Assembly (NCBI GenBank): GCA_038087875.1 | Contig: CM075991.1 | Span: forward strand, 4,774,001-4,838,000 | DNA from: Malacoraja senta | Taxonomy: Eukaryota | Direction: 5' to 3' | Length of the DNA stretch: 64,000 bases | In this document: one piece after another, positions 1,477-56,385 of the stretch | Layout of the letters: every line of letters begins with the position of its first letter | Position numbering within the stretch: the stretch's first letter is position 1 | The notes under the pieces: generated by a model | Told to the model about the DNA's origin: nothing | The model's database searches: none | What the model saw: only the letters and a program-made list of their open reading frames with translations | Made by a program: the position numbers and the translations under genes

Positions 1477-2168
1477 ATCCAACCTCCAGAGCACCAGATA
1501 ACATCAAAGGATGCAAGCATTCTGCAGCCTGCTCGGGATTGGAAAATGGAAGTGGACTTAGAAAAAAGGCTTGTGTTTCCTCCAGACATTGTGGCTACAA
1601 CACTCCGGCCAGACATGGTCCTGTGGTCCACAACAGCCAAGTTGGCATACGTTGTGGAATTGACAGTTCCTTGGGAAGATGGTGTTGAAGAAGCTTATGA
1701 GAGGAAAAAGACCAAGTACTCTGAACTGGCAACTGAAGCTTCCCAGAATGGCTGGAAGACCAAGGTTTTCCCTGTCGAAGTGGGATGCAGGGGATTTGTT
1801 GCTACATCTATGACCAGGCTGTTAAAGAAAATGGGGGGTGAGGGGTCGCTCCCTCCAACAAGCAATCGAATCATTCTCAAATTCTGCAGAAAAAAACAGC
1901 AATTGGATGTGGATCAAAAGGAGAGACAACATTTGGGCTGCAAGATGAAGTCAGGAGGGTATGGAATTGAGGGGGGTGTAACTGGGACGTTGAGCCCTCT
2001 GGAGATGTTGTGGGCTTATCAATGAAACGTCAAAGAAGGAGGGTGCCCACCTGATGACCCCGATGACGTACCTACCCGACCTTTCACCACTCCAATCCCA
2101 CTGCAAATAGAAAGAGTGCCGACTTATTACAGGAATTGAAACATTAAGTCCTATTAGCTCTACTCTAC
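1477..2168 (+). mobile_element. 5'-truncated HERO/NeSL-like non-LTR retrotransposon: restriction-like endonuclease domain plus 3' UTR
   Basis: Translation ...LRPDMVLWS...VELTVPWED...AYERKKTKY...PVEVGCRGF is the PD-(D/E)xK restriction-like endonuclease of R2/NeSL/HERO-type elements. A frameshift in the G-run at ~1833-1838 leads to VRGRSLQQAIE...WMWIKRRDNIWAAR* (TGA 1946-1948). Confidence 0.85.
2004..2066 (+). ncRNA. Candidate non-circularly permuted hammerhead ribozyme in the HERO-like 3' UTR
   Basis: GATGT-T (2004-2009) pairs with GAAACGTC (2024-2031). GTGGGC (2010-2015) pairs with GCCCAC (2045-2050), which sits immediately before CTGATGA (2051-2057). TTATC (2016-2020) can pair with GATGA (2062-2066). 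Confidence 0.5.
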
Positions 2169-7184: not shown

Positions 7185-7359
7185 CTGGAAGCTTTCAAGA
7201 GAGAGCTAGATAGGGCTCTTAAAAATAGTGGAGTCAGGGGATATGGGGAGAAGGCAGGAACGGGGTACTGATTGGGGATGATCAGCCATGATCACATTGA
7301 ATGGCGGTGCTGGCTCGAAGGACCAAATGGCCTACTCCTGCACCTATTGTCTATTGTCT
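7185..7359 (+). mobile_element. Young CR1 LINE 3' end with 10-bp TSD
   Basis: Encodes ...FKRELDRALKNSGVRGYGEKAGTGY* and ends in a (ctattgt)n tail. TSD ataatgttct at 7175-7184 and 7360-7369. Confidence 0.85.
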
Positions 7360-7429
7360 ATAATGTTCTAGCTTGGATTTGCTTTTCTTACAATTATTGG
7401 CCGAAGCACAGAATACATGTATCTTGTAT

Positions 7430-10582: not shown

Positions 10583-10803
10583 CAATAGACAATAGACAAT
10601 AGGTGCAGGAGTAGGCCATTTGGCCCTTCGAGCCAGCACCGCCATTCAATGTGATCATGGCTGATCATCCCCAATCAGCACCCCGTTCCTGCCTTCTCCC
10701 CATAGCCCCTGACTCCGCTATTTTTAAGAGCCCTATCTAGCTCTCTCTTGAAAGCATCCAGAGAACCTGCCTCCTCCGCCCTCTGAGTCAGAGAATTCCA
10801 CAG
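10583..10803 (-). mobile_element. Young CR1 LINE 3' end
   Basis: caatagacaatagacaataggtgcaggagtaggcc..., nearly the reverse complement of 7185-7359. Confidence 0.85.
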
Positions 10804-37117: not shown

Positions 37118-37953
37118 AGCAAGAACAGATGATTATCTGGTGTCAGATTAGGAAAAGGGGAGGTGCAATGTAACCTGGGTGTGCTTGTACAGCAGTCACT
37201 GAAAGTAAGCATGCAGGCAGTGAAGAAAGCCAATGGCATGTTGGCCTTCATTGCGAGAGGATTTGAGTTTAGGAGCAAGGCGGTCCTACTGCAGCTGTAC
37301 AGGGCCCTAGTGAGACCGCACCTGGAGTATTGTGCGCAAATTTGGTCTCCTAATTTGAGGATGGACATTATTGCTATTGAGGGAGTGTAGCGTAGGTTCA
37401 CCAGGTTAATTCCCGGGATGGCGGTACTGACATATGATGAAAGAATGGGTCGACTGGACTTGTATTCACTGGAATTTAGAAGGATGAGAGGGGATCTTAT
37501 AGAAACGTATAAAATTCTTAAAGGATCAGCCATAATCACAGTGAATGGCGGTGCTGGCTCAAAGGGCTGAATGGACTACTCCTGCACCTATTGTCTATTG
37601 ATTGGACAGGCTAGATGCAGGAAAAATGTTCCCGATGTTGGGGGAGTCCAGAACCAGGGGTCACAGTTTAAGAATAAGGGGTAGGCCATTTAGGACTGAG
37701 ATGAGGAAAACTTCGTCACCCAGAGAGTTGTGAATCTGTGGAATTCTCTGCCACAGAAGGCAGTGGAGGCCCATTCACTGGATGTTTTCAAGAGAGAGTT
37801 AGATTCAGCTCTTAGGGCTAAAGGAATCGAGTGATATGGGGAAAAAGCAGAAACGGGGTACTGATTTTAGATGATCTGCCATGATCATATTGAATGGTGG
37901 TGCTGGATCGAAGGGCCGAATGGCCCTCCTGCACCTATTTTTCTATTTTTCTA
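37118..37953 (+). mobile_element. CR1 LINE 3' ~830 bp, with a second CR1 tail nested at ~37527-37580
   Basis: VKKANGMLAFIARG...LYRALVRPHLEYCAQIWSP, followed by the 3' UTR and tail. Confidence 0.9.
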
Positions 37954-46182: not shown

Positions 46183-46680
46183 TGATTGATGCAGTGCAGC
46201 GTATGTTCACGAGATTGATCCCTGGGATGGCGGGACTGTCATATGAGGAAAGATTGAAAAGACTAGGCTTGTATTCACTGGAGTTTAGAAAGATGAGGGG
46301 GGATCTTATAGAAACATATAAAATTATAAAAGGACTGGGCAAGCTAGATGCAGGAAAAATGTTCCCAATGTGGGGCGAGACCAGAACCAGGGGCCACAGT
46401 CTTAGAATAAAGGGGAGGTCATTTAAGACTGAGGTGAGAAAAAACTTTTTCACCCAGAGAGTTGTGAATTTATGGAATTCCCTGCCACAGAGGGCAGTGG
46501 AGGCCAAGTCACTGGATGGATTTAAGAGAGAGTTAGATAGAGCTCTAGGCGCTAGTGGAATCAAGGGACATGGGGAGAAGGCAGACATGGGGACGATCAG
46601 CCATGATCACAATGAATGGCGGTGCTGGCTCAAAGGGCCGAATGGCCTTCCTGCTGCACCTATTTTCTATGTTTCTATGA
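46183..46680 (+). mobile_element. CR1 LINE 3' ~500 bp
   Basis: VQRMFTRLIPGMAGLSYEERLKRLGLYSLEFRKMRGDLIETYKI...RVVNLWNSLP, then a ttctatgtttctatg tail. Confidence 0.92.
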
Positions 46681-50165: not shown

Positions 50166-50831
50166 CACCTTCATATCTTCATTTTTTTTGTATATTTTGC
50201 TGTTTCTGGAATATAATATCTTCCACCAGGAGCCAATATCGGCAAAGTAAACTCTTAAAATGACTACATTTTAATGGATATATATGAGAAAATTATATTT
50301 ATTTATTTGAACCTTTTTTTGATAATCATTGATGCCTTTGTTTTGTTGGAGTGAAATTGCCATCCTTAAGGCAAAGAAATGTGGCATCACGGGAAGACTT
50401 GCCATGAAAAATATGTACTAGTGCTCCACGACACATTAGTCATCTTCAGAATATTTCTGCAACCATATTAAACTGACACGAAACATCAAATTGACAGATG
50501 TTTTTGATGTTCTCAGTGATATAATGACTTGGGAAAAGACTTTTCTTGGTTAAATATACTCCACTTTATTGTGAGGTGTTACTCGATTTATCTATTACCC
50601 AGTAAATATTTCCTGAGCTGTTTCTTTTCAACAGTAAAATACAATGCTAATTTATACAGGTTTGGCAAAAAATTAATTTTACATCTGTAGATGATTAATT
50701 GTATGGGCAGTAGCTCTCAATGAAATGTTTTCCTGCCTTGGTCTTCTGTGTTGAACACTGAGAAAGAGAAAAGGGATTTTAATTATTGTTTTCAACAAAG
50801 ACTTGCATGGTAAAATGATTTATCAGTGAAA

Positions 50832-52835
50832 CAAAGAAACATACGAAAAAGGTGCAGGAGTAGGCCATTCGGCCCTTTGAGCCAGTGCTGCCATTCAATC
50901 AGTACCCCGCTCCTGCCTTCTCCCCATATCCCTTGATTCCGCTAGCTCTGAGAGCTCTATCTAACTCTCTTTTGAATGCATCCAGTGAATCGGCCTCCAC
51001 TGCCTTCTGATGCAGAGAATTCCACAAATTCACAACTCTCTGGGTGAAAAAGTTTTTCCTCATCTCAGTTCTAAATGCCCTTATTCTTAAACTGTGGCCC
51101 CTGGTTCTTGACTCCCCCAACATCGGGAACATGTTGCCTGCATCTAGCTTGTCCAATCCCTTAATAATTTTATATGTTTCTATAAGATACCCTCTCATCC
51201 TTCTAAAATTCCAGTGAATACAAGCCCATTCGTTCGATTCCTTCATCATATGACAGTCCTGCCATCCCGGGAATTAACCTCGTGAACCTATGCTGCACTC
51301 CCTCAATAGCAAGAATGTCCTTCATCAAATTAGGAGACCAAAACTGCACGCAATACTCCAGGTGTGGTCTCAACTGGGCCCTGTACGACTGCAGAAGGAC
51401 CTTTTTGTTCCTATACTCAAGTCCTCTCGTTATGAAGGCCAACATGCCATTAGCTTTCTTCACTGCCTGCTGTACCTGCATGCTTACTTTTAGTGACTGA
51501 TGTACAAGGACACTCAGGTCTCATTGCACTTACCCTTTTCCTAATCTGACACCATTCAGATAATAATCTGCCTTCTTGTTCTTGCCACCAAACTGGATAA
51601 CCTCACATTTATCCGCATTATACTGCATCTGCCATGCATCTGCCCACTCACCCAACCTATCCAAGTCACCCTGCATCCTCGTACCATCCTCTTCATAGTT
51701 CACACTGCCACCCAGCTTTGTGTCATCTGCAAATTCACTAATGTTACTTTTATGATAATGTTCCTTCATCTAAATTATTAATATATATTGTAAATAGCTG
51801 CGGTCCCAACACCGAGCCTTGTGGAACCCAGCAGTCACTGCCTGCTATTCTGAAAGGGACCAGTTAATTCCTACTCTTTGTTTCCTGTCTGCCAACCAAT
51901 TTTCTATCCATATCAATACCCTACCCCCAATACCATGTGCTCTAATTTTGCCCACTAATCTCCTGTGTGGGACCTTATCAAAGGTTTTCTGAAAGTCCCT
52001 GTTTTCCCTCTCCCTCCTTTCTTAAAATGTGGGATAACATCAGCTCTCCTCCCATCCACAGGAACGGATCCAGAATCTGTGGAACATTGGAAAATGATCA
52101 CCAATGCGTCCACGATTTCTAGAGCCACCTCCTTGAGTACGCTGGTATGCAGACCAACAGGCCCTGGGGATTTATCAGCCTTCAGTCCAATCAGTCCACC
52201 CAACACCATTTCCTGACTAATGTGAATTTCCTTCAGTTCCTCCATCATCCTAGATCCTCTGTCCCCTAGTACTTCTGGGAGATTGTTGGTGTCTTCCTTA
52301 GTGAAGACAGAACCAAAGTACCTGTTCAAATCGTCTGCCATTTCCTTGTTCCCCATAATAAATTCACCTATTTCTGTCTTAACTAATCTTTTCATCTTCA
52401 CATACCTAAAGAAGCTTTTACTATCCTCCTTTATATTCTTGGCTAGCTTACCTTAGTACACCATCTTTTCTCCCCATATTGCCTTTTCAGTTACCTTCTG
52501 TTGTTCTTTAAGAGTGTCCCAATCCTCTGGCTTCCCGCTCATCTTTGCTACGTTATACGTCTTCTCTTTTAGTTTTATACTGTCCTTGACTTCCCTTGCC
52601 AGCCACGGTCGCCTCTTACTCCCCTTAGAATCTATCCACCTCTTTGGAATGGAATGATCCTGCATCTTCTGGATTATTACCAGAAATTCCTGCCATTGCT
52701 GTTCCACCGTCATCCCTGCTAGGGTCCCTTTCCAGTCAACTTTGGCCAGCTCCTCCCTCATGCCTCCATAGTCCCCTTTGTTCAGCTGCAATACTGACAC
52801 TTCTGATTTTACCTTCTCCCTCTCAAAACTGCGAA
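50832..52835 (-). mobile_element. CR1 LINE, ~2 kb ORF2 fragment with internal deletions
   Basis: Minus-strand ORFs KGDYGGMREELAKVDW..., LNRYFGSVFTKED...KSPGP, ISEFADDTKLGG...MQGDLDRL and RPHLEYCVQFWSP. Confidence 0.93.
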
Positions 52836-54932: not shown

Positions 54933-56385
54933 GAGTCATAGAGTCATACAGTGTGGAAACAGGCCCTTCGGCTCAACTTGCCCATGCCGACCGATATGCC
55001 CCATCTACACTAGTCCCACCTGCCTGTGCTTGGCTCAAATCCCTTTAAACCTATCCTGTCAATAGACAATAAACAATAGACAATAGGTGCAGGAGTAGGC
55101 CATTCGGCCCTTCGAGCCAGCACCACCATTCAGCGTGATCATGGCTGATCATCCCCAATCAGTACCCCGTTCCTGCCTTCTCCCCATATCCCCTGACTCC
55201 GCTATCTTTAAGAGCCCTATCTAGCTCTCTCTTGAAAGTATCCAGAGAACCTGCCTCCACCACCCTCTGAGGCAGAGTCACCACTCTCTGTGAGAAAAAT
55301 TGTTTCCTCGTCTCCGTTCTAAATGGCTTACCCCTTATTCTTAAACTGTGGCCCCTGGTTCTGGACTCCCCCAACATCGGGAACATGTTTCCTGCCTCTA
55401 GCGTGTCCAAACCCTTAACAATCTTATATGTTTCAATGAGATGCCTTCTCATCCTTCTAAACTCCAGAGTGTACAAGCCCAGCCGCTCCATTCTCTCAGC
55501 ACATGACAGTCCCGCCATCCCGGGAATTAACCTTGTAAACCTACGCTGCACTCCCTCAATAGCAAGAATGTCCTTCCTCAAATTAGGGGACCAAAACTGC
55601 ACACAATACTACAGGTGTGGTCTCACTAGGGCTCTGTACAACTGCAGAAGGACCTCTTTGCTCCTATACTCAACTCCTCTTGTTATAAAGGCCAACATGC
55701 CATTCGCTTTCTTCAATGCCTGCTGTACCTGCATGCTTACTTTCATAGACTGATGAACAAGGACCCCCAGATCTCATGGTACTTCCCCTTTTCCCAACAT
55801 GACGCCATTTAGATAGTAATCTGCCTTCCTGTTTTTGCTACCAAAGTGGATAACCTCACATTTATCCACATTAAACTTCATCTGCCATGCATCTGCCCAC
55901 TTCCCCAAACTGTCCAAGTCACCCTGCATTCTCATAGCATTCTCCTTACAGTTCACACTGCCACCCAGCTTTGTGTCATCTGCAAATTTGCTAATGTTAC
56001 TTTGAATCCCTTCATTCAAATCATTGATGTATATTGTAAATAGCTGCGGTCCCAGCACCGTCTTGCGGTACCCCAGAAGTCACTGCCTGCCATTCTGAAA
56101 GGGACCCGTTAATCCCTACTCTTTGTTTCCTGTCTGCCAACCAATTTTCTATCCATGTCAGAACTCTACCCCCAATACCATGTGCCCTAATTTTGCCCAC
56201 TAATCTCCTATGTGGGACCTTATCAAATGCCATGTACCTGTCCAAATGTCTCAACTACCTGCCTCAACTACCTCCTTTCCGGCAGCTCATTCCATATACC
56301 CACCACCCTTTGTATTAAAAAAAAGTTACCCCTCAGGTTCCTATTGAATCATGATGGCCCCTCACCTCAAACATACGTCCTCCAG
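54933..56385 (-). mobile_element. Young CR1 (55060-56230) nested in an older CR1 3' end (54933-55059 and 56231-56385)
   Basis: Inner copy: AFDKVPHRRL...LGPQLFTIYINDL...KFADDTKLGG...QFWSPNLRKDILAIEGVQRRFTRLIPG with a (caataga)n tail. The outer halves rejoin as aaacctatcctgt|ccatgtacctgtcc, as at 60019-60045. Confidence 0.92.

Follow-up and report, generated by a model that had tools for sequence, protein, structure and literature searches.

The stretch of DNA analysed here (the window) comprises 64,000 nucleotides of Malacoraja senta, taken from the forward strand of contig CM075991.1 (assembly GCA_038087875.1, positions 4,774,001 to 4,838,000). It carries a truncated copy of a LINE, which splits a SINE-like repeat into halves at 1321-1478 and 2165-2240; a further tRNA-like SINE head was seen at about 2410-2600. 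BLAST aligned window positions 1479-2164 with positions 1041-1738 of a longer family copy at 94.4% identity. The features were located as follows.

1479-2164, plus strand: LINE copy, 5'-truncated (end of the ORF and 3' UTR), within the SINE-like repeat
1946-1948, plus strand: TGA stop codon of the LINE ORF, in the frame common to 41 of 51 aligned rows (counted by eye)
1973-1976, plus strand: X, the 5' strand of helix IIa (GGGG; partner 2058-2061), placed in the window by homology
1977-1988, plus strand: remnant of hairpin H, with 13 nt (GCCAGGTATCACC in most copies) gone between 1987 and 1988, from an alignment of 30 copies
1989-1993, plus strand: Y, the 5' strand of helix IIb (GUUGA; partner 2019-2023), its first G replacing G10.1
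1995-2000, plus strand: 5' strand of helix P (CCCUCU; partner 2038-2043), from covariation
2004-2009, plus strand: 5' strand of stem III (GAUG), then U16.1 and H17 (U), with the predicted cut after 2009
2010-2015, plus strand: 5' strand of stem I (GUGGGC), from covariation
2019-2023, plus strand: 3' strand of helix IIb (UCAAU), with U at position 11.1, where 49 of 56 relatives have C
2024-2031, plus strand: G12, A13, A14 and A15.1, then the 3' strand of stem III (CGUC), from core letters and covariation
2038-2043, plus strand: 3' strand of helix P (GGAGGG), from covariation
2045-2057, plus strand: 3' strand of stem I (GCCCAC), then C3 to A9 (CUGAUGA), from core letters and covariation
2058-2061, plus strand: 3' strand of helix IIa (CCCC), from homology and covariation
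2062-2164, plus strand: remaining tail; family copies terminate in ...GCUCUAC(U), about 155 nt beyond the predicted cut

The 1.94-Gb assembly gave 547 first-look candidates for the LINE family and 121 exact matches to its 3'-terminal 30-mer. Longer or upstream-extending copies encode a reverse transcriptase (RVT_1, E = 4.4e-8), after which a C...H...C zinc knuckle and the letters RPD...E...K were recognized by eye; Pfam returned no significant match for the endonuclease part of the ORF. Similarity of the protein to R2 proteins was weak (E = 0.003). The family has the HERO-type architecture, in which the reverse transcriptase is followed by a C-terminal restriction-like endonuclease. At one truncated copy (L131, 962-1624) an ORF upstream of the LINE matched Pfam ALKBH8_N (E = 8.8e-13) and is probably part of another repeat.

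The window copy is part of a dead, truncated insertion. Being 5'-truncated and short of 13 nt of hairpin H, it is likely to be inactive. A second copy on the same contig (L003, G000:C15:4183242-4186461) has the same 13-nt deletion, and its 5' truncation and flanks differ from those of the window copy; this loss may be the signature of a minor sub-lineage that was still able to transpose.

The initial annotation had described three hammerhead strands downstream of the stop codon, and direct reading of the window placed every motif letter where it had put them. The site block GATG-T-T/GTGGGC (the slash marks the predicted cut) occupies 2004-2015, the GAAA block TTATC-aat-GAAA-CGTC occupies 2016-2031, and the CTGATGA block GCCCAC-CTGATGA-cccc-GATGA occupies 2045-2066.

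The frequency of such matches was estimated in 220 Mb of simulated sequence with a descriptor tuned to the candidate and with any block order allowed. There were 37 core matches, equivalent to about 327 per 1.94 Gb or 0.011 per 64-kb window, and 3 of the 37 also matched with a relaxed stem II. A single copy of the motif is indistinguishable from chance; it is the recurrence in relatives that makes the motif more than chance.

Several further results agree with a chance resemblance within a repeat family, as does the expectation of about 327 core look-alikes per genome. Rfam gave no gathering-score match in the window, no ribozyme match in 1900-2200 at E <= 10 and no match at E <= 0.1 in two long family copies; the crossing order of the stems may account for this. 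The stability of the nested fold was no better than that of shuffled sequences (z = -0.66 and +0.22), and nested folding preferred competing hairpins (-20.9 kcal/mol, as against about -11 kcal/mol for the three core stems summed). Nested folding is uninformative here, because the proposed fold is a triple pseudoknot. Within the genome the motif has decayed as fast as its flanks (5.65% versus 5.31%), as expected because the copies are dead. The family copies within the genome have diverged too little for covariation, and the counts of CG, TG, TA and CA at one stem III pair fit independent CpG decay. Set against all of this, the motif recurs in distant relatives (54 of 79 loci) and all six of its helices covary (below), which refutes chance; the probability of a chance resemblance is negligible.

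Distant relatives were collected with the 472-aa C-terminal ORF of one family copy as query. This ORF has 441 relatives, found in teleosts, a sturgeon, lancelets, a sea urchin and bivalves. Sixteen of them were aligned, and with this alignment 79 metagenome loci at 33-77% protein identity were retrieved. In the DNA past the ORF of the metagenome loci that were printed, the same succession was seen in locus after locus: a site, C-GAAA-C, about 20 nt, and CUGAnGA. A simple motif parser found a fit in 44 of 61 loci.

A covariance model, R1, was built from 33 seed sequences picked with a parser for which stems I and III and a non-G H17 were obligatory. Only helices IIa, H, P and III went into the model, which at no point included IIb or I; H and P had played no part in the selection of sequences. 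Searching 355 kb on both strands gave 62 matches at E <= 0.01, every one of them (62/62) on the ORF strand. The matches fell in 54 of the 79 metagenome loci, in the window and in 3 own-genome loci, which represent 2 different family copies (L052 and L132 overlap). They lay either 3' of the ORF or one unit upstream. By their coordinates, about 14 of the 25 metagenome loci without a match end at or near the ORF stop. The window copy itself was matched at 1979-2065 (37.8 bits, E = 1.6e-7), and intact family copies scored above it with the same model (40-43 bits).

Pairing was then counted over the six helices. In the R1 alignment of 57 distinct rows, which is fitted to the model and leans towards it, 86.7% of 1963 cells were paired, compared with 55.1% in shuffles (0 of 500 reached 86.7%) and 39-44% with slid partners; changes on both sides were present in 37 of 38 pairs. 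A plain MAFFT alignment of 33 sequences gave 81.3% paired cells as against 56.0% when shuffled (0 of 500) and 38-47% when slid, with both-side changes in 36 of 38 pairs. Double changes were seen in 8/8 pairs of helix IIa, which reaches 12 bp and has quite different letters between loci, in 6/6 pairs of helix P, which recurs with other letters in the relatives, and in 6/6 pairs of stem I. Hairpin H covaried in 8/8 pairs and stem III in 5/5. The two helices outside the model, IIb and I, were paired in 88.6% and 88.1% of cells, respectively, in the 57-row R1 alignment.

Covariation across homologous UTRs had been named in the initial annotation as one way to examine its candidate, and stems I and III and the CCCUCU/GGAGGG helix do covary. 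Stems I and III stand as proposed and adjoin the core as in any hammerhead; the extra helix, likewise proposed from the window, is the covarying helix P. The block order site-GAAA-CUGAnGA cannot be reached from types I-III by circular permutation; it recurs in the 54 of 79 loci. The assignment to a LINE 3' UTR, in an element whose restriction-like endonuclease is C-terminal, also held, the motif recurring after the ORF in distant relatives. The predicted cut after 2009 is consistent with the covarying helices.

The letters of the hammerhead core were tallied in the same rows. U4, G5, A6, G8 and A9 were present in 57/57 distinct rows and C3 in 55/57, with any letter at N7. A13, A14 and A15.1 were found in 56/56 sequences, U16.1 in 56/56, and G12 was G in 53 and A in 3. 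H17 was C in 22, U in 17, A in 17 and G in 0; a non-G letter had been required by the parser in the 33 seeds, and the remaining rows were free of that requirement. The change of G12 to A was found in L210, L217 and L218, and the dominant contigs of related organisms carry either this change or A13-to-G together with C15.2-to-G. G12-to-A falls within the C11.1-G12 CpG and fits decay. Depth along the tail was uneven in contigs of related organisms: L052 1388-1443 and 1486-1527 (window 2021-2076 and 2119-2160) were several-fold deeper (summed) than the stretch between them; the difference may stem from other repeats sharing those parts or from divergence of the middle.

Structures in the 3' UTR are the usual recognition elements of sequence-specific LINEs, as established for R2. 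This speaks for a reading in which the fold is a conserved protein-binding element recognized by the reverse transcriptase, hammerhead-like but without cleavage. A binding element would not, however, fix exactly the catalytic letters while leaving N7 free and H17 never G (56 sequences). On this and on the evidence of copy ends given below, we consider protein binding without cleavage quite unlikely.

Stem II departs from what had been proposed. A weak pairing of UUAUC with GAUGA had been suggested, whereas the conserved pairings are UCAAU/GUUGA and CCCC/GGGG. The stem II junction had also been called non-canonical in this copy; its supposed spacers, aau and cccc, are in fact paired, and the junction is therefore regular for the LINE family. 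In the fold that the alignments show, a junction formed by helices IIa, H and IIb takes the place of stem II. The strand before GAAA pairs with Y, upstream, and C11.1 with the first G of Y; the strand after A9 has X, further upstream, as its partner. Hairpin H joins X and Y, and the sixth helix, CCCUCU/GGAGGG, bridges two linkers. C11.1 (49/56) has as its partner the G at Y1 (53/56) on the upstream strand and not after A9, where the letters were U in 26, C in 20, A in 6 and G in 4. Because this partner lies upstream of the site block, the CUGAnGA block is split. In the LINE family of the window, position 11.1 is U, which gives a G.U pair, and helix IIa has only 4 pairs.

A more conventional arrangement was considered, in which a canonical type III hammerhead would use a distal GAAACAU(C) at 2138-2145, a CCC/GGG stem II and the AUU bulge as a kink-turn. 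The letters fit in the window, and by eye L156 likewise has a distal GAAA, after which comes a sequence complementary to the L156 stem III strand. The distal block was, however, not seen in most of the other loci printed, and it is the proximal GAAA that is invariant in the model alignment, with a flanking strand that covaries with Y. The type III arrangement was dropped and is very improbable. The distal GAAA is followed by CAUU in the window and by CAUC in most family copies; in L156 it stands about 65 nt after CUGAUGA and is followed by GAAACACC, the stem III strand there being GGUG. It could be an alternative partner or a coincidence.

Taken with the covariation and the core letters, window 1973-2061 is probably a damaged copy of a conserved, multiply knotted fold of the LINE 3' UTR, with a complete hammerhead core and a predicted cut after U2009.

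R2 and other non-LTR retrotransposons carry HDV-like ribozymes at the 5' end of the element, which process the transcript. The LINE motif resembles these in being a (predicted) self-cleaving ribozyme within an R2-superfamily LINE. It differs in ribozyme class and in position, its place being the 3' UTR, some 155 nt short of the 3' end, and not the 5' end.

The closest likeness is to the type-SGC hammerheads (HRIMA-1 and variants) of Eckert et al. 2023, which are described as coming from metatranscriptomes, as cleaving in vitro and as thought to be part of circular RNA agents (PMC10085705). The block order (site, GAAA, CUGAnGA) and the core letters are the same as in the LINE motif, and both have crossing stems I and III and one more helix that connects distant portions of the RNA. 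In the authors' RNAMotif pattern stem II forms directly between the letters following CUGAUGA(N)G and those preceding CGAAA. In the LINE motif each of these strands instead has its partner in an upstream segment, a hairpin connecting the two segments, and the C block is interrupted after A9, the G opposite C11.1 being separated from it. Type-SGC RNAs are metatranscriptome RNAs, and the LINE motif lies in a chromosomal LINE of animals. Compared with the pattern, which allows linkers of 0-8 nt and 0-15 nt, the window agrees in order and in linkers (0-8 nt and 13 nt), has UGAAA in place of CGAAA, and lacks the direct stem II pairing after CUGAUGA(U)G, its strand pairing with X. The pattern would thus not have found the LINE motif. 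The published rule is that the three hammerhead blocks are uninterrupted, and the stem II junction of the LINE motif breaks it.

Hammerheads are also carried by Penelope-like elements (PLEs) and retrozymes, where they are of ordinary type I or minimal form (PMC4209133, PMC7229834). Retrozymes are non-autonomous elements whose cut unit-length RNA is circularised, and the PLE reverse transcriptase is telomerase-like with a GIY-YIG nuclease. The LINE shares with both a retroelement-borne hammerhead and head-to-tail or partial tandem copies. It differs in being autonomous, with a reverse transcriptase and a restriction-like endonuclease, and in its knotted strand order.

Head-to-tail copies were sought at the element head. 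Among 22 copies in the own genome that reach the head, 20 have the element's own tail directly upstream. The tail-to-head joint is identical (...GCTCTAC-T-GACCTTCTGG...) and, by eye, contains no visible extra letters in the 20 tail-preceded copies. The other two are one copy with 8-10 tail letters only and one that is truncated; a start at the first base of the head without any tail letters was found in 0/22. The upstream partial copies start at varied places, and one locus holds nearly two units. In a relative of 33% identity, 784 nt are repeated at 100% with a period of 4365, and the motif is in both copies. The joint before the copies is precise, and from the head-to-tail copies the template seems to carry tail-to-head continuity.

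The head has letters of its own that recall a hammerhead: within its first 60 nt (for instance in L025, after ...GCTCTACT) stands CUGA(U/C)GA, followed by CAAGG-GAAA-GACC. No hammerhead could be fitted to them, there being no UH site with matching stems.

Traces of cutting were looked for at the predicted site. The pattern ...GGAGATGTT had 122 matches in the own genome when followed by a non-G letter and 112 when followed by G. In 27 of 30 fetched non-G loci the LINE ends exactly after the predicted H17, and LINE homology, by BLAST, stops at the predicted cut in 7/7 loci tested. Past this end the LINE is joined to (AGAAACAT)n and a repeat, Z. Independent copies of Z with unrelated flanks start in the same (AGAAACAT)n repeat, and thus the joint lies between the predicted cut end and Z's natural 5' end, the arrangement that a switch of template onto cleaved RNA would produce. 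Copies of this cut-ended class lie in arrays and are 98-100% alike, and in the 3 arrays examined they share a single LINE 5' boundary; the shared boundary and the likeness make one founding event likely. They are supportive of cutting and, probably representing one founding event, not decisive.

The tandem arrays (L262, which is C2590:3001-12900, L263, L264 and L243-L245; G000) alternate a 2.25-kb cut-ended LINE piece with about 1.6 kb of Z, at a period of 3856 nt in some and of 4.6-7.9 kb in others. Small contigs and the end regions of large ones hold many of them (C5, 82.18 of 82.86 Mb; C4, 87.45 of 87.53 Mb; C9, 0.07-0.16 Mb). Repeat Z, with at least 3011 first-look candidates in the genome, begins with a short 8-mer tandem, (CATAGAAA)n, followed by AATAGGTGCAGGAGTAGGCCATTCGGCCC, and occurs in the window at 7234-7361, 10585-10712, 37524-37953, 46193-46679, 50828-50877 and 55071-55745. 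A match of window 55076-55148 to the LINE reference was rejected as Z against Z.

Ordinary insertions were all continuous through the predicted cut. From 100 copies chosen by their 3' end, 62 had their 5' end in the last 900 nt, and 0/62 of these truncated copies started at the first base of the predicted 3' product. Two near-matches to such a start were set aside, L031 being an assembly gap and L060 an internal deletion. It follows from the continuity and the 0/62 that a cut linear RNA is not the usual template. The same two observations are what a protein-binding element would give; that one class of copies stops exactly at the predicted cut is not.

For a fold that does cleave, the following course is proposed. 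The ribozyme would cut the LINE RNA after U2009. Transcripts that run through head-to-tail copies would be cut at two ribozymes, yielding unit-length RNA of about 3.86 kb, which would likely be circularised or used as a multimer. The reverse transcriptase would then copy the circle or multimer for more than one round, and such copying would account for insertions that range from under one unit to about two. In this way an autonomous animal LINE lineage might replicate like a retrozyme, with a knotted hammerhead, a unit-length cut, a circle and multi-round copying by its own reverse transcriptase. We put this full scheme forward as a tentative possibility.

Template jumping between linear RNAs is the main rival to the circle step. 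R2-type reverse transcriptases are known to jump end to end between templates, and the Z chimera at the cut site looks like such a jump. The ribozyme might accordingly cut with no circle being formed, head-to-tail copies arising when the enzyme, on reaching the 5' end of a linear RNA, continues at the 3' end of a second one; the ribozyme would then have some other role, for example trimming read-through transcripts or separating the mRNA from the template. Jumping fits less well with the single joint shared by the 20 tail-preceded copies, where no extra letters are visible, and with the 0/22 copies that start at the bare head, as if the joint were already in the template; jumps could still occur. 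Cleavage without a circle is likewise a possibility to be held only tentatively.

A literature search, with subscription journals outside its scope, found no description of a hammerhead in a LINE with a reverse transcriptase and a restriction-like endonuclease. The initial annotation had mentioned reports of non-circularly permuted hammerheads from animal genomes; in print they have come so far only from environmental RNA, as metatranscriptomes (PMC10085705). The present motif would put such a hammerhead in chromosomal retrotransposons of fishes and invertebrates, at hundreds of copies per genome. Its wiring would be new, with stem II opened into a junction against the published assumption of uninterrupted blocks. 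The opened stem II explains why published patterns miss the motif, the reason in the case of Rfam perhaps being the crossing order. The fold offers a testable handle on how template RNA and head-to-tail copies are made in a LINE lineage and, if the scheme is true, elements of a class thought to rely on linear mRNA would pass through a circular RNA stage that depends on a ribozyme.
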